Assembly (NCBI GenBank): GCA_019058315.1
Contig: JAHPZH010000001.1
Span: 64,001 to 128,000, forward strand
Source of the DNA: Candidatus Helarchaeota archaeon
GTDB taxonomy: Archaea; Asgardarchaeota; Lokiarchaeia; Helarchaeales; RDOG01
Reading direction: 5' to 3'
Length of the DNA stretch: 64,000 bases
Position numbers and translations under genes: made by a program. A model generated the notes under the pieces. The model did not search any database. It was not told where the DNA came from and saw only the letters and a program-made list of their open reading frames with translations. Below are positions 34,975 to 43,077 of this stretch, piece by piece; positions within the stretch are counted from its first letter, which is position 1, and the number at the start of each line of letters is the position of its first letter.

Positions 34975-36246
34975 ATGTCGAAGCTTACTCCAGAACAACA
35001 AAAAAAATATGATAAAGCTCTAAAATTATATGCCAAAGCAGAGAAAATGATTGCAAAACAGAAATTTGATAAAGCAAAAGATAACTTCAAAAAAGCGATT
35101 AATGAATTCTATTCAATGCAGGCATATGCACAAGCCCAGAAAATTATTAATAAATTTGTAGAATCCGCTTTAATAGAAAAAGAATATCAAGAAGCCGCTG
35201 TTGCCTTGTATCAAGCTGCAAATATCGCCTTAATTGAAAATAAGGTCAAAAAAGCACTAGAAAATTATAAATCATCAATTAATTTTTTTATAGAACAATC
35301 AGGATTTAGCAAGAAAAATGAAGATATAAAATATAACGCTTTATGCCTTTCTCCTCTTTGTGAAGCCGCATTAGGTAAATTTGAGTATGCAATTGATTAT
35401 TTTAAAACAAACCTTAATCAAATTCCTCGCCGATTTAGAATCAAACTCCCAATTGTTGATTTTTGCACTTCAATTTTTAATACGCTTATTACTAAAAAGA
35501 TTGAAAATCTAAATAATTCTAAAACAATTTTAAAAGATTTAAAGTTACTAGAAGGCGAAACAATATTACTCGAAAATCTCATAAGTATTGCTGAACTTTA
35601 TGTAAAAACTAAAATCGAATCTCGTCTAAATAAAGAAAAAATAGAAGCAGGGGATAGTTTTTCTTTAAATATTTCATTAAACTCGCCTGAAAATATAGAA
35701 ATTCTTAAATATTATTTGGATTATGACACACAACGATTAGAATTAACTAATGTACCAAAAATTTCTGAGAATAAACCTATTGAATTTATATTCGATGCTA
35801 AAGTTCAAGGGAAGGCAAAATTTGGACCTCTTTTATTAACATGTAAGGCAAAAGAAATAGAGTTTCCTTTTAAATATCAAAGCATTTTAAACATATTACC
35901 AGGGAGACCAAGACTTCAAATAGATGCTCAAAGTGAGATAAATATATTCGAGGGTGATGCCTTTGATTTTGATTTCGAAATAACAAATAGAGGTAAAGGA
36001 GAGGCTATTAATTTAGCTGTAACACTTGAGGTTCCCGAAGAAATTATGATCATAGCAGGCACTAAAGAAAAAAAACTTTATTCCCTAAATTCTCAAGAAA
36101 ATTATATTTTCACATTTCCTCTACAAGCCATAAAGAGCGGAGCTTATGAAGGAAAAATCCTTATTAGTTTTGAAATTCCTCGAGGTATTTCTAGTAAGCC
36201 GGAAGAGATAGAGGAAGTAAAAACAATTAATTTTAAAGTTACTTAA
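34975..36246 (+). CDS. TPR/SNAP-like alpha-solenoid followed by two Ig-like beta-sandwich domains
   Basis: Ala-rich helical repeats (AAVALYQAANIA, ALENYKSSINF); C-terminal FEITNRGKGEAINLAVTLEVP CARDB/BatD-like pattern; no signal peptide. Confidence 0.6.
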   Translation: MSKLTPEQQKKYDKALKLYAKAEKMIAKQKFDKAKDNFKKAINEFYSMQAYAQAQKIINKFVESALIEKEYQEAAVALYQAANIALIENKVKKALENYKSSINFFIEQSGFSKKNEDIKYNALCLSPLCEAALGKFEYAIDYFKTNLNQIPRRFRIKLPIVDFCTSIFNTLITKKIENLNNSKTILKDLKLLEGETILLENLISIAELYVKTKIESRLNKEKIEAGDSFSLNISLNSPENIEILKYYLDYDTQRLELTNVPKISENKPIEFIFDAKVQGKAKFGPLLLTCKAKEIEFPFKYQSILNILPGRPRLQIDAQSEINIFEGDAFDFDFEITNRGKGEAINLAVTLEVPEEIMIIAGTKEKKLYSLNSQENYIFTFPLQAIKSGAYEGKILISFEIPRGISSKPEEIEEVKTINFKVT

Positions 36247-36872: not shown

Positions 36873-37565
36873 TCATACCTTTAAATCAAAAAACAAGTCA
36901 ATTCCATATTTATCATAAAGCTCATCAATCAGGTAAATCAATGGGTTTAAATGACTTTTATAACGATCCCAAACAAGATGAGTTGTTTTTTCTCTTCTTT
37001 GTGCAAAATGTAAGAATCCCTCGCTATCAAAACATGGATCTTTTGGTCGGGGCGTTACTTGAATCGTAGGAGGAACATCTGGATATTCTGCATTGAATAA
37101 AATTTTCGAAACTCTTACCACACCATCTCTCCATTTAGATGATACATAAATACCCTTTTCCGGGCGTTTTTTATCTATGTATTTCCATTCACTACCGTTT
37201 ATTTCCACTATGTATTTTAGATGGGTTTTAAACAACTCAGTTCCACTTTTAATTTTACTAGAAATACTCCCACCTATGGGTTCCGGAATCCAGTATATCT
37301 TATCTGTGTCTTGTGCTATTTCCCCTATCGTGTTGCGAAGAGATATTGGTACTTTTCGACCTTGTGTAATATAGTAAAGTTTTATTGTTAGCATGTTAAT
37401 TCCGACGTTTCTAACATTGCCATATCCTAAATTTAAAACGTCTAAGATTCGATCATTATATTTCCATAATAATCTACTGGCAACATCCCTGATAATCTCA
37501 TCTTCTTGAGATTCAACATAATCTGTGGTCCCAATAAGTGGATTAACCCAAGTTATTTCTTTCAA
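36873..37565 (-). CDS. Ubiquitin-like domain (internal PIGG) fused to an atypical E2/UBC-fold domain
   Basis: N-half is homologous to 38522-38830 (DKIYWIPEPIGG vs DKIYWEPEPIGGH); C-half is homologous to 38870-39232 with ILFNAEYPDVPP and HLNPLIYLIDE. Confidence 0.75.
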   Translation of the reverse strand: MKEITWVNPLIGTTDYVESQEDEIIRDVASRLLWKYNDRILDVLNLGYGNVRNVGINMLTIKLYYITQGRKVPISLRNTIGEIAQDTDKIYWIPEPIGGSISSKIKSGTELFKTHLKYIVEINGSEWKYIDKKRPEKGIYVSSKWRDGVVRVSKILFNAEYPDVPPTIQVTPRPKDPCFDSEGFLHFAQRREKTTHLVWDRYKSHLNPLIYLIDELYDKYGIDLFFDLKV

Positions 37566-37637: not shown

Positions 37638-38405
37638 TTGATGAAAAGATTTTTCTTTGGTCCTGTTCTTTCTCGTAGATTGGGTTTTTCTTTAGGGATT
37701 GATATATTACCCGATAAAAAGACTTGTACTTTTGACTGTCTTTACTGTGAAATAGGAAAAACTCGACGAGTTACCTCCCCAAAAACCCGTTCTCCTTTCC
37801 TAATAGAAAATAAAAAGAATTTTGAATTACAATTAAGAAATATCTTATCTCAAGATATATTAATCGATACATTAACATTTGCAGGATATTCGGGTGAGGC
37901 AACATTAAATAGTGAATTAAATACATTTTTAAACATTACAAAATCTGTAAGATCTGACCTGCATAAAGAAAATATCCCAATATCCATTTTGACTAATTCC
38001 TCAACAATTAATTTTCCTGAAATTAGAAAAATATTAATGAATTTTGATAATATAGTTGCGAAATTAGATGTTGGAAATCAAGCTTCTTTTATGAAGGTGA
38101 ATCGTCCACATTTTTTAGTTCCACAAATTTCTGATATTATAAATGGTTTAAAGCAATTAAGGGAGGAGCTTGATAAGAATCGACTCGTTATTCAGACTCT
38201 TTTGTTTAGTGAAAATAATGATAGAAAAAACATTGATTCATTAATTGAAGCTTACAATATTATCAATCCAAATAAAATTCAACTTTACTCGATTGCCCGT
38301 CCACCCGCATATGCCGTAAAAAAAATAGATGGGCTTCAATTGGAACAGATAAAAAAGAATATGCAAGATGTATTAAAAACCAATATTAAAATTGAAACTT
38401 ATTAA
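37638..38405 (+). CDS. Radical SAM protein (COG0731-like Fe-S oxidoreductase)
   Basis: FGPVLSRRLGFSLGID, CTFDCLYC, SGEATL, LTNSS, AKLD, VNRP, YSIARPP. Confidence 0.88.
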   Translation: MMKRFFFGPVLSRRLGFSLGIDILPDKKTCTFDCLYCEIGKTRRVTSPKTRSPFLIENKKNFELQLRNILSQDILIDTLTFAGYSGEATLNSELNTFLNITKSVRSDLHKENIPISILTNSSTINFPEIRKILMNFDNIVAKLDVGNQASFMKVNRPHFLVPQISDIINGLKQLREELDKNRLVIQTLLFSENNDRKNIDSLIEAYNIINPNKIQLYSIARPPAYAVKKIDGLQLEQIKKNMQDVLKTNIKIETY

Positions 38406-38521: not shown

Positions 38522-38830
38522 ATGCCAGAAATGACATATGTCTGCCCGCAAATAGGTAGTACAGATTATTTAGATTATGAAGAAGATACGACCTTCGAAG
38601 ATCAAATAAATGAACTAAAAGAGAAATATTTACGAGATATTCTTGATTACGTTCAGCAATTTCGAAATATACGTCAAAATATAGGATTAGATCAAATTAC
38701 TGTAAAGATACACTATATTGATGCTGAAGGTATCAAACAAACAATTGGACTTAAAACTTACGTTAAGGCAATGGCTGAACGTCATATTGATAAGATATAT
38801 TGGGAACCCGAACCCATTGGAGGGCATTAA
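38522..38830 (+). CDS. Ubiquitin-like (beta-grasp) protein ending PIGG-H
   Basis: Strand/helix pattern beta-beta-alpha(DTTFEDQINELKEKY)-insert-beta-beta-beta; di-Gly masked by one residue; adjacent to an E2-like gene. Confidence 0.72.
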   Translation: MPEMTYVCPQIGSTDYLDYEEDTTFEDQINELKEKYLRDILDYVQQFRNIRQNIGLDQITVKIHYIDAEGIKQTIGLKTYVKAMAERHIDKIYWEPEPIGGH

Positions 38831-38869: not shown

Positions 38870-39232
38870 ATGCAGCAAACTTCTAAACAAATCTTTGCAA
38901 GTCATATTTACGATTTGACAGTTCGACCCGGTTATTATCGCTCTACATGGAAACTAATTAATAAAAAAATACCCTTAAAAGGAGCTTTCGGTCATTTTAT
39001 GGGCAAGGATTTTCGAGTAATTGTAATAAAAATCTTATTTAATTCAAAATATCCCGAAAATCCTCCAAAAATTATTAGCACTCCTCCTATCCGCGATGTT
39101 TGTTGGGATAATAAGGGTGTGTTACATTGGGCTAGATACGGGGGAGAGTTTGTATGGAGTAAATATAAAGATCACTCCAATCCATTAATTTATGTCGCAG
39201 ATGAAATTACTGAAAAATATAAAACCATGTAA
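38870..39232 (+). CDS. Atypical E2/UBC-fold protein
   Basis: ILFNSKYPENPPKIISTPPIRDVCWDNKGVLHW aligns without gaps to the UBC core [33 protein letters not shown]. Confidence 0.75.
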   Translation: MQQTSKQIFASHIYDLTVRPGYYRSTWKLINKKIPLKGAFGHFMGKDFRVIVIKILFNSKYPENPPKIISTPPIRDVCWDNKGVLHWARYGGEFVWSKYKDHSNPLIYVADEITEKYKTM

Positions 39233-39256: not shown

Positions 39257-40834
39257 TTACTTTTTAATTATTATTGCCACTAACACTAGAATTACTATCG
39301 CCATAGCACCAATTATTATCAAGAGAATAAGAGGATCAATTGGAAAACCCGCACCTGTCGGTATAGGTATAAAATTATCCATAGGTTCTGTAGACACTAA
39401 TGAAACTTTTTGTGCATATATATCATAATCACTTAAGCTTCTATTATCCTGCCACGTTATGATAGCAACTCCAGAACTAACGTAAATAATCTCATGATTT
39501 TCTTGCAAACCATATTCTGTACATACTGGCAGACCCTTACCAACATATTGCAAAATACCATTTTTATCGAGCATTTGTGCATAGATTGATCCATTAGCAT
39601 CTTCTTCTTTATCTATCCAAGAGATAAATGAATTTCCTGAGGAGTCGCAGCAAATCCTAGACTGTTGTTGATCACTGGGTGAAGTACAAACAGGGGTACC
39701 ATTATTTCTCCATAATGTGGTGCCTATTGGGTTAATTTTTTGAGTATAGATATCCTCCTCATAAATATTTCGTAAATCCTGCCATGTAATAATTGCATTT
39801 CCCTCACTATCACAGCAAATTTTTGGATAGAATTGGCTATATTCTGCTGTACAAATTGGTGTGCCATTGAGAGTCCAATAAACAGTACCAGTTGAGTCGA
39901 TTTTTTGTGCATATATATCTGTATATGTACCGTTTCTATTATCCACCCAAGTGATAATTGCATTACCAGAACTATCACAGCAAATATCAGGCCAATATTG
40001 ACTGTCAGTTGCATTACAAATTACAGTACCATTGTCTTGCAATTGTGAATGACCTGTAGAATTAATAAATTGACAATAGATATCGTTATCTGATGTTGTC
40101 ATATTTCTATAGTCTTGCCAAGTAATAATTGCGTTTCCTGCACCATAAACACTAATTTTTGGAAATGTTTGGATGTTTATAGCATTGCAAATTATTTTTC
40201 CGTTAGTTGTCCATTGGACAACTCCACTCGAATTAATTCTCTGGGCATGGATATTAGATGTTGCAAATTCATCATTTATCCATGTAAGAATCGCACCGCC
40301 TAAATTATCGCTGCAAATTTCTATCCTTGATTCATCATTAGGCAAACCAGTAATTTGCACACCGTTGGCAGTCCATTGCGTAATCCCGTTTGCGTCCACT
40401 CTTTGAGCTTTAATATTTTGAGTATCTTCCCATGCGATGATTGCCCCCCCAGAACCATCAGAACATATCTGGGGAAGAGTTTGAGAACCAGGAGAGTTAC
40501 AAATTAATGTGCCGTTAACATCCCATAATGGATTCCCATTTGAATCGATTCTTTGAACATAAATACTAGAAATGTCTCTGGAATCCGCCCAAGTAATAAT
40601 TGCACCACCAGTTCCATCACTGCATATTTCAGGATTATATTGGTCTTGTGGCGTTTGTACACATACAGGTGTACCATTAGCTGCCCATTGCGTACTTAAA
40701 CCATTAGCCTTGAGTTTAGATTTCTCATCAATTTTTAAAAGTAAGACATTTTGATTGCTAAACCCTGTATATGAATTTATAGCTAAAATGGAAAACATCA
40801 AGATTGGGATTAAAATTAAAAACCTTTTCTTCAT
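39257..40834 (-). CDS. Secreted beta-propeller protein with C-terminal TM anchor
   Basis: About seven repeats W..NGT.IC....Q..P.ICSD..GGAIITW.D.R...DIY.Q.I; signal peptide MKKRFLILIP; C-terminal hydrophobic helix followed by KK. Confidence 0.85.
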   Translation of the reverse strand: MKKRFLILIPILMFSILAINSYTGFSNQNVLLLKIDEKSKLKANGLSTQWAANGTPVCVQTPQDQYNPEICSDGTGGAIITWADSRDISSIYVQRIDSNGNPLWDVNGTLICNSPGSQTLPQICSDGSGGAIIAWEDTQNIKAQRVDANGITQWTANGVQITGLPNDESRIEICSDNLGGAILTWINDEFATSNIHAQRINSSGVVQWTTNGKIICNAINIQTFPKISVYGAGNAIITWQDYRNMTTSDNDIYCQFINSTGHSQLQDNGTVICNATDSQYWPDICCDSSGNAIITWVDNRNGTYTDIYAQKIDSTGTVYWTLNGTPICTAEYSQFYPKICCDSEGNAIITWQDLRNIYEEDIYTQKINPIGTTLWRNNGTPVCTSPSDQQQSRICCDSSGNSFISWIDKEEDANGSIYAQMLDKNGILQYVGKGLPVCTEYGLQENHEIIYVSSGVAIITWQDNRSLSDYDIYAQKVSLVSTEPMDNFIPIPTGAGFPIDPLILLIIIGAMAIVILVLVAIIIKK

Positions 40835-40949
40835 TTTTAACAAATCCAATTTTTATTAAAATATATCAAATATACTGAGGTTATAACATATAAATTGGAG
40901 TAATAGTTCATAGAGAAATAGAATAATTAAGTTAGAAAGTCGTGTAGAA

Positions 40950-42023
40950 ATGCGAGTAATTATAGATTCGTCGGTAATTGAATCATGTAAGCAAACAATT
41001 CAAGAATGTTATGGTGAAAAAGCGTTTAAAGAAGTAGGGGGGTATATTTTAGGAATGTTTGACGGCGAAAATTTCCAAGTTAAATCCCTTTATCTTGATA
41101 AATATGCTGAATCGACTTCTATCAGAATTAAACTAAGCGTTGATGCATTCCATGAAGTTGAGGAAATACTTTCCCAATCTCCTGAAATGATGTATATTGG
41201 GACATGGCATGTTCATCCTGGGACAGATAAACCCGCATACTCAAATGTTGATGTTTCAACTCTATTTTTAGAACGGGTAATTATAGACACAGATAATCCT
41301 GAAAGTTTGAAATGCCCAAAGATTCATATAATTTTTAATAATTCTCTAACTGAATATAGTTGTTATACTATGGATATATTTTTTAATTTTTTATGCGAAC
41401 CTCTTGATTCATCTGTTGCCAAAAATTTAGTTGAAGCTGAATTGCTTGAAATTGGGCTAGATGCCCTTACGGAATCTAAAACCTTGCTAAAACTAGAAAC
41501 TCTTGAAAGTTATATCAATTTACAAAAAAATATCGAAGAAGTGTATAATAATCTCGATTTAATTTCTGACCAAATCAATTTTGCACTTGACTTTTTTAAT
41601 GAACTTGAATGGTATAATAAAGTTGAAAATAAAATCGAAAAAATAATTAAGAATGAGATTAAAAATGGAGAAAGAATTGGAGTAATCTCTTCTGAAAACG
41701 AGAAAAAAATCGAAAGCTTGAAATATAGACCTAAGAATATAAAAAATTCATATACAGATGGATCTTTAGTAGGTTTTTGGGTATTATTTCCATACGAAAG
41801 TATCAGCGATATGTTTTTGAAAATTTTTTATGCTAATTTCTTCAAAAAAATTGAGACTGAACCTGGAGATGTCTTCTTATTCTTCCTAGTTCAAAAAATT
41901 AAGGAAGAAATCATGATTAAACCGTTTTTTTTAAATTTCACATCATTTGAAGGAATATCATATATAGAATTAGAAATGACTTTGATTGAGGATGACAATG
42001 AAAATAATGTTTCAGAATCCTGA
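40950..42023 (+). CDS. JAB/MPN+ (JAMM) metalloprotease with C-terminal extension
   Basis: EVGGYILG...GTWHVHPGTDKPAYSNVD fits E...HxH...SxxD; overlaps the E1 gene. Confidence 0.88.
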   Translation: MRVIIDSSVIESCKQTIQECYGEKAFKEVGGYILGMFDGENFQVKSLYLDKYAESTSIRIKLSVDAFHEVEEILSQSPEMMYIGTWHVHPGTDKPAYSNVDVSTLFLERVIIDTDNPESLKCPKIHIIFNNSLTEYSCYTMDIFFNFLCEPLDSSVAKNLVEAELLEIGLDALTESKTLLKLETLESYINLQKNIEEVYNNLDLISDQINFALDFFNELEWYNKVENKIEKIIKNEIKNGERIGVISSENEKKIESLKYRPKNIKNSYTDGSLVGFWVLFPYESISDMFLKIFYANFFKKIETEPGDVFLFFLVQKIKEEIMIKPFFLNFTSFEGISYIELEMTLIEDDNENNVSES

Positions 42024-43077
42024 TACGGGTGAAACAATATATATCGAGGATGAGGAGCTTCTTATCAGAGATATTGCCAATAAAATAATGAAAGAATACA
42101 ATCTAGAAAAACCACCAATCTTCTTCACCCTTATGAAAGAAGACCCAGTATCAGAAACTTATCTAGAAGAAGATGATAAATTAAAAACAATTAATGAAGA
42201 AAAATTGGATGTAAAGACACCAATATGGTGGCGATCGTCAGAAATTGATCTAGATTTAATTTATAAACTTCGAACAGAACGCTATGATAGATCGGGTTAT
42301 GAGCTAGAAAAAATCGGAAAAACCAAGGTATTAATTGCAGGTGTGGGATTATTAGGAGCGGATATTGCGTTTGATTGCGCAGTTTTAGGAATAAAGGACC
42401 TTACAATAATTGATTATGGGTCTGTAGATTGGTTTAATATCTATCGACAAAGTCTCTATTCCAAAAAAGATGTATTTAAATCGAAAGTTGAAGTGGCAAA
42501 AGAAAATCTCGAGGATATGGGGGGTGTAAATGTTAAATCATTAAAAATTGAGATTCCAAGTTTTATTTATCTGCCAGAAGATAAAAGTATAATACAAAAT
42601 TCCATTTTAAAAATTGAGCCTGAAGTTAAAAAATGTGATATAATAATTACTGCTCTTGATACATTCAGCGCTAGAATGATAATGCAAACTTTAGCTTTAG
42701 CAAATGATAAAATCCTTATTAATACGGCGGCTGGTCTAGTAGGTGGGGTAGTTCAATTAGTGAGAATTAAGCAAAATGATCCTTGCTTGGCATGTGGTAT
42801 TTATTTTGATAGAAATCAAGATGTGGGTGCGTGCACTTTGGCATCGTTTGGTACTCCTAAAATCATATCTGGAATTACAATGGAAATTTTGACAAATCTG
42901 ATTGAAGAAAGAGAAATCAAATATAACCATTTTAAATATATTCCCCAAACTTACCAAATAGAACAAAGTAATTTTATAAAAGGCAAAGAGTTCTGTGATT
43001 TTTGCGATAGGGAGAAAGGAATTATATTTAAATATAAAAATGGAGAAAAAAAAGCCCTAATTGATTGGTTATATTGA
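41998..43077 (+). CDS. ThiF/MoeB/E1-family adenylyltransferase with N-terminal Ubl-like domain
   Basis: RYDR, VLIAGVGLLG, IIDYGSVDWFNIYRQ, SKVEVAK, ALDTFSAR, Zn pairs PCLAC and CDFC, putative catalytic Cys in VGACT; start at ATG 41998. Confidence 0.88.
   Translation: MKIMFQNPDTGETIYIEDEELLIRDIANKIMKEYNLEKPPIFFTLMKEDPVSETYLEEDDKLKTINEEKLDVKTPIWWRSSEIDLDLIYKLRTERYDRSGYELEKIGKTKVLIAGVGLLGADIAFDCAVLGIKDLTIIDYGSVDWFNIYRQSLYSKKDVFKSKVEVAKENLEDMGGVNVKSLKIEIPSFIYLPEDKSIIQNSILKIEPEVKKCDIIITALDTFSARMIMQTLALANDKILINTAAGLVGGVVQLVRIKQNDPCLACGIYFDRNQDVGACTLASFGTPKIISGITMEILTNLIEEREIKYNHFKYIPQTYQIEQSNFIKGKEFCDFCDREKGIIFKYKNGEKKALIDWLY

Follow-up and report, generated by a model that had tools for sequence, protein, structure and literature searches.

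Eukaryotic ubiquitin precursors, which include polyubiquitin, the ubiquitin-ribosomal protein fusions UBA52/RPS27A and tailed ubiquitin-like proteins (Ubls), carry a masked Gly-Gly (GG) and are cut after this GG before activation. In bacteria, the Type I Bub systems (formerly 6E.1) are encoded by operons of BubAB, BubCD and BubE. The cut in BubAB, made by the JAB domain of BubCD, falls after Gly229, as Edman sequencing showed, and active-site mutants are inactive (PMC11601596; Ye, Gong, Chambers & Corbett). Bub chemistry has no catalytic Cys: the E1 uses a Tyr of its crossover loop and the E2 a Ser (with His and Asp), in an oxyester chemistry (PMC11601596). A related arrangement had been predicted by Iyer, Burroughs & Aravind in 2006, whose Table 1 lists, in row 6e, a polyUbl in fusion with an 'inactive E2-like domain' (PMC1779556).

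The present analysis concerns a stretch of 64,000 nucleotides from a Candidatus Helarchaeota archaeon, referred to throughout as the window, which encodes a Ubl fused through GG to an E2-like domain. We propose that this fusion is probably the pre-protein of a cysteine-based, Bub-like ubiquitin-type conjugation system and would be cut after Gly99 by the JAB metalloprotease of the same locus.

Organization of the fusion gene and its split paralog

The fusion gene, termed paralog A, is a 230-aa ORF with a TTG start on the minus strand (36873..37565). Homology and fold matches place a ubiquitin-like beta-grasp domain ending in W-x-P-E-P-I-G-G at residues 1-99 (37269..37565, minus) and an E2-like domain of UBC/UEV fold at residues 108-230 (36876..37244, minus). 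The two are joined by the linker SISSKIKS (residues 100-107; 37245..37268, minus), which has low pLDDT and varies among homologs. Conservation and natural split points mark the Gly98-Gly99 codons (37269..37274, minus) as the predicted cleavage and activation site, and alignment of homologs reveals a near-invariant cysteine in the E2 domain, Cys178 (codon 37032-37034, minus). On the plus strand, paralog B consists of two ORFs that align with the fusion, namely a free 102-aa Ubl ending in PEPIGG-H (38522..38830) and a free 120-aa E2-like protein (38870..39232). Fusion residues 1-99 share 42% identity with the former (E 5e-22) and residues 106-220 share 41% with the latter (E 4e-26), a similarity far above chance in both halves. 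Over the last 12 residues before the junction, 11 are equal to the free Ubl tail, compared with 42% identity overall. A sequence-only reading of the window had described the 230-aa protein as the 38522 homolog, PIGG, SISSK and the 38870 homolog in succession, with the di-Gly at 37269-37274 and in inverted orientation across a radical SAM gene. Both halves align as described, the codons of G98-G99 lie at that position, and the fusion and the split pair occupy opposite strands on either side of the radical SAM gene (37638-38405).

The GC content of the window is ~31%, and its nearest protein relatives are found in metagenome-assembled genomes (MAGs) of Helarchaeota and Lokiarchaeota, which also hold the full-length fused homologs (n=13, 52-92% identity). 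Three neighbouring features deserve separate mention. The radical SAM gene was considered as a system component and rejected: it adjoins the family only in the window and in locus L003, lies ~6 kb off in L004 and did not turn up at the JAB/E1 loci of the remaining genomes; its score against the viperin family (27.7 bits, cut-off 180) permits a superfamily-level assignment only. A 423-aa TPR plus CARDB/DUF11-like protein is encoded in the window (34975-36246) and, in genome G240, at L018:5387-6595. In each case the fused gene is no more than ~3 kb away, in G240 although the JAB/E1 operon is elsewhere; this proximity may reflect a functional link or mere synteny. Finally, the fusion ends in a tail, GIDLFFDL (residues 221-230, window 36876-36905), that is invariant within the paralog A clade, absent from the free E2 and modelled with low confidence. 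It could be a docking motif.

Structural assignment of the two halves

Neither the fusion nor the free Ubl or free E2 has a family match in Pfam (E<=0.1), NCBIfam or PADLOC. A single-sequence AlphaFold2 model of the fusion was unusable (pLDDT 35), and the model used here was built on a 54-row alignment. It has a mean pLDDT of 89 and a pTM of 0.56, with residues 100-104 below a pLDDT of 50, suggesting two confident domains joined by a flexible hinge. For residues 1-99, the top Foldseek match was ubiquitin (E about 1e-4, prob 1.0), and VIA returned the beta-grasp Ubls polycomb ULD, ATG12 and SUMO with Z up to 9.1. For residues 103-226, VIA returned the VPS37A UEV, a Plasmodium E2, Mms2 and UBE2G2 (Z 8.4-9.0); a sequence-profile search of PDB chains (E<=10) gave weak UEV-type matches alone, the best at E 0.055. 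The initial assignment of a Ubl and an E2 is thus recovered at the level of predicted folds. The modelled first half combines a beta-grasp fold with a flexible tail bearing Gly-Gly, as expected of a Ubl, and modelled residues 103-226 adopt the UBC fold. The canonical HPN before the catalytic Cys (Pfam UQ_con) is absent from the E2 domain, which has no Pfam match at E<=0.1; the motif reads P-K-D-P-C-F-D...G-x-L-H. The Ubl would be attached covalently to targets through its C-terminal Gly.

The neighbouring JAB and E1 genes

Downstream of paralog B, a 357-aa JAB/JAMM metalloprotease with a roughly 200-aa C-terminal extension is encoded on the plus strand (40950..42023). It matches the PADLOC JAB model with E 1.6e-10, and its JAMM motif is complete, with E28, H87, H89, S98 and D101 invariant in 11 homologs. 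The JAB ORF overlaps that of an E1-like adenylating enzyme of 363 aa (41986..43077, plus), the two being separate genes in the window. This E1 matches Pfam ThiF with E 3e-31 over one ThiF stretch (residues 107-311), and its best solved relative is Atg7 (E 6e-14), to whose catalytic Cys the E1 residue Cys283 is aligned. Cys283 sits in a short crossover loop and, like both CxxC pairs and the ATP-site residues, is invariant in 9 homologs. The N-terminal 95 residues (window 41986-42300) are similar to the Ubl family (hhalign E 5e-5, 67% probability), with RSS in place of GG. Relatives beginning MK(V/I)MFQNPD suggest that the true E1 start is probably the ATG at 41998. The genome contains a single JAB and a single E1 of the family, so both Ubl/E2 modules must share them. 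A complex prediction for JAB residues 1-160 plus Zn against fusion residues 1-112, run without controls, scored 0.00 and is evidence neither way.

Between the free E2 and the JAB, the window carries a gene for a 530-aa repeat-rich secreted or membrane protein (39257-40849, minus). In the closely related locus L003, the same interval measures only about 180 nt, which identifies the 530-aa gene as an insertion that breaks the operon in the lineage of the window.

Junction and cysteine conservation

A profile search of 1.84 billion representative proteins yielded 36 cluster representatives of the family, of which about 22 are fused, 9 E2-only and 5 Ubl-only. Conservation of GG in fused homologs, on which the initial proposal of a precursor depended, is borne out: 22 of 26 fused relatives have GG at the junction and all 26 have at least one junction Gly, at identities down to about 21%. 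The four non-GG junctions read GA, WG or YG. The linker ranges from 2 to about 17 residues among homologs and is variable in sequence too. The E2 Cys is missing from three E2-bearing rows, comprising two longer multidomain proteins and the long-branch P0045; a fourth row without Cys is a Ubl-only protein that has no E2 domain. A D-x-C motif is conserved in the E2 domain, and the fusion clade has His186, a position at which K, D, S, N, G, C and M also occur across the family.

Fused and split states

The family is present in 6 of 301 sampled genomes of the phylum and in 7 of 7 species genomes of the window's order. Within this order, paralog B stands beside JAB and E1 and is always two ORFs. 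Paralog A varies between related genomes, a comparison suggested alongside the sequence-only reading: it is fused in three species (G000, G240 and G303) and split in three others (G302, G301 and G304, with the post-GG tails E, M and TSSDE). The metagenome relatives L004 and L028 are split as well, with the tail R, and paralog A was not found in G297, a genome that is 82% complete. At least six of the seven species of the order keep both the paralog A and the paralog B modules. The fused gene and the JAB/E1 operon of G240 lie on different contigs, so that the fusion and the JAB are linked there by genome and not by operon.

Every split falls 1-5 codons downstream of GG, and no free Ubl in the family ends at GG. 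Their tails after GG are H, L, R, E, M, VPYI, IMYLT, TSSDE, WGE or 8-13 residues long, and processing is consequently needed in the fused and the split state alike. Since the same paralog is fused in some species and split after GG in others, the products should be equivalent.

In a tree of E2 domains rooted at its midpoint only, the fusion clade is sister to the clade of the window's free E2 (support 89/87), and split states are dispersed among mostly fused members, which takes at least 5 changes. In six species, the paralog-B Ubl tail is the N-terminal coding region of the E2 read out of frame, a pattern diagnostic of a 1-nt frameshift in a gene that was formerly fused. The sequence-only reading had taken the coexistence of fused and split states as the record of a fusion or fission event. 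Such a record can be given a direction, for trees and reading frames together point to fission of a fused ancestor, not to fusion.

E2 genes without a canonical start codon

In G240, G297, G301, G302, G303 and G304, the reading frame of the paralog-B E2 is shifted by +1 against that of the Ubl and begins immediately behind the GG codons. The corresponding loci are L019:9950-10070 (G240), L020:3770-3950 on the minus strand (G297), L048 (G303), L049 (G302), L050 (G304) and L051 (G301). None of these six E2 genes has an ATG, GTG or TTG before the family-invariant F..H helix. The junction of G240 is identical across its JGI, NCBI and ENA records. Over the start-less stretch of 21 codons, pN/pS is 0.33 in the E2 frame and about 1.08 in the other two frames. 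By this comparison the stretch is under purifying selection in the E2 frame, from which its translation follows. Two routes are possible. Initiation may occur at a conserved AUU/AUC/AUA located 5-8 nt after the GGAGG-like Gly-Gly codons, or the E2 may be made through a +1 frameshift; in four genomes, a ribosome that passes over the first base of the stop codon of the Ubl would be exactly in the E2 frame. A uniform +1 frameshift at the stop codon was rejected, as the Ubl frame of L048, L050 and L027 stops ~9 codons later, inside the conserved helix.

Distant relatives

JAB is found with the family everywhere examined. The distant fused homologs L007, L009 and L023 lie directly upstream of a JAB-E1 fusion protein of 711, 685 and 659 aa, respectively, and the JAB and E1 of the window (357 + 363 aa) match the 711-aa protein of L007 end to end. 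The host genome of L007, of 11 Mb and 62% GC, is probably bacterial. Its Ubl-E2 and JAB-E1 genes (L007:1-14687) are located among Peptidase_C14 and C11 caspase-like proteins, an HD-CE protein and a MazEF pair, a setting that is conflict-island-like and unlike the archaeal one. At L008:959-2902, a single gene encodes Ubl-GG, an E2-like domain and JAB, with the E2 Cys replaced by Arg or Ser; a normal Ubl-E2 fusion precedes it and an E1 follows. This triple fusion could possibly be a self-processing polyprotein.

Discussion

The proposed pathway can be outlined as follows. The JAB of the locus (40950-42023) would cut the fusion after Gly99, separating the E2-like enzyme from a Ubl that now ends in an exposed Gly-Gly, and would also remove the one His that follows GG in the free 102-aa Ubl. 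Judging from conserved residues, the E1 (41986-43077) would then adenylate either Ubl, load it on Cys283 and transfer it to the E2 of the same module, at the conserved Cys (Cys178 in the fusion). Two modifier/E2 modules would thereby run on one protease and one E1, with the fused module made in 1:1 amounts. The fusion would probably be inactive until cut because its Ubl sits directly on the N-terminal helix of the E2.

As far as sequences can indicate, cutting after GG appears well supported, both by the near-invariant junction glycines, the variable disordered linker and the interchange of fused and split states, and by the tail removal needed in every state and the presence of an intact JAB alongside the family. 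An internal control is provided by the Ubl-like domain that remains permanently on the E1 and has no GG. The idea put forward in the sequence-only reading, that JAB cleavage would set free a second Ubl and its cognate E2, is in this sense supported. Against the pre-protein reading stand the non-GG junctions of four fused homologs and the fusion of G240, which is off the operon contig.

Uncleaved Ubl domains are common in eukaryotic proteins. The fusion might work uncleaved, with its Ubl acting as a docking or regulatory module that holds the E2 on the E1 or a partner, or as a mimic of a loaded E2. In its favour, about 22 of the 36 cluster representatives are fused, which makes this the commonest state, and AlphaFold shows two well-folded domains. 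However, a conserved terminal GG would be needless in an uncleaved protein, and the Ubl-like domain fused to the E1 no longer has one; moreover, close relatives have both domains as separate genes split at GG. A two-residue linker is also possible, which would bring GG to the N-terminus of E2 helix 1. In the UBC fold, the N-terminus of helix 1 lies far from the active-site loop, so a thioester-linked conjugate could hardly be copied. We therefore consider uncleaved function unlikely. The form of it raised in the sequence-only reading, an uncleaved mimic of a charged E2, found no support, given that paralog A is either fused or split after GG and that the fused Ubl-like domain of the E1 is without GG.

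Both states could also matter, if the pool were cut in part and the uncut fusion served as a brake or reservoir setting the Ubl-to-E2 ratio. Fused and split modules persist side by side in at least six of the order's seven species, which suggests non-redundancy and would fit such an arrangement. Paralog A is, however, split in three of those species, which makes an obligatory uncut role unlikely, and partial cutting as a whole seems to us improbable.

Processing could, in addition, be achieved by means other than the locus JAB, either through the E2's own Cys or by an unrelated cellular protease. The conserved D-x-C motif with His186 in the fusion clade would suit the former, and the distance of the fused gene from the JAB in G240 would suit either. 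Yet His186 is variable across the family, leaving no general Cys-His dyad, the JAB co-occurs everywhere examined and is fused to the E1 or to a Ubl-E2 protein in distant members, and in Bub it is the JAB that does the cutting. Such processing is very unlikely, and self-cleavage by a Cys-His-Asp triad of the E2 domain is ruled out by the variation of His186 across the family.

If the cut by the JAB is true, the principle of a tag placed on its own E2 and cut to become active is not confined to the bacterial, oxyester-based Bub systems. A thioester-based version would exist in Asgard archaea, to which eukaryotes are closer than to any other known prokaryotes, in the form of a compact four-part system (Ubl, E2, JAB and Atg7-like E1) without an E3. 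A system of this size could be rebuilt in vitro to study the control of activation and the choice of targets in early ubiquitin-type cascades. The family is missed by current annotation because it is tiny and absent from Pfam, NCBIfam and PADLOC. Furthermore, its fused and split forms in sister species represent a natural experiment on gene fission.

The proposed precursor resembles those of eukaryotic ubiquitin in that the GG of the modifier is covered, either by another protein fused to it or by a few extra residues. It differs in that the partner is the cognate E2 and in that the likely protease in the window is a JAMM metalloprotease beside the E1, where most eukaryotic precursors are processed by DUBs of the Cys-protease type. 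Type II CBASS Cap2/Cap3 and Bil systems show likeness in other respects: in PADLOC, Cap3-type models pick up the JAB (E 1.6e-10) and Cap2 'E1-E2' models the E1 (E 5.6e-13), and this E1 is Atg7-like with Cys-based chemistry. Unlike the window system, CBASS has in Cap2 an E2-E1 fusion without a separate Ubl. Bil (BilABCD) is distinguished from the window E1 by the latter's single ThiF stretch and its Cys in a short crossover loop.

The closest architecture is that of Type I Bub. In both, the Ubl is N-terminal to the E2-fold domain with a conserved Gly between them, JAB is joined physically or genetically to a single-domain E1, and the E2 is without the C-terminal helices of canonical UBC. JAB and E1 form one protein in BubCD, as in L007, L009 and L023, and separate overlapping genes in the window. 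Several features set the two apart. The window family keeps the E1 Cys283 (invariant) and the E2 Cys178 (near-invariant). BubE (DUF6527, PF20137), present in every Bub operon, was not found in the window genome: PF20137 gave no match in this 94%-complete genome, though a control genome matched, nor in the Pfam lists of related loci. Bub Ubls often contain 2-3 beta-grasp domains compared with one in the window family. The host is an Asgard archaeon, and the locus is stable and syntenic with a related MAG over about 13 kb of ordinary genes, in contrast to the mobile islands described for Bub systems. The profile search of PDB chains (E<=10), a collection that may or may not include those of Bub, gave no sequence similarity to Bub proteins, and no Bub chain occurred among the top 50 rows of the VIA wide fold search, a result that does not exclude similarity. 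By the conserved cysteines and the absence of BubE, the window family is not Bub. In view of the missing sequence similarity, Bub is a precedent by analogy of architecture and not by shown homology, and cleavage of the fusion is inferred.

A description of an archaeal Ubl-E2 fusion or of a non-canonical Ubl system of Helarchaeota was not found in the literature searched. It is possible, if doubtful in its entirety, that the locus represents an undescribed cysteine-based sister of Bub that is a stable chromosomal trait of one Asgard order, with two modifier/E2 modules on one protease and E1, and with the start-less +1 E2 made by recoding in most species, such that one message gives much free Ubl and little E2 or Ubl-E2. 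The mechanism of cutting after Gly is itself not new, having an experimentally grounded precedent in Bub. The new details are the cysteine-based archaeal variant, the pairing of a fused with a split module, and the +1-frame E2 genes that lack a canonical start in the operons of six related genomes.
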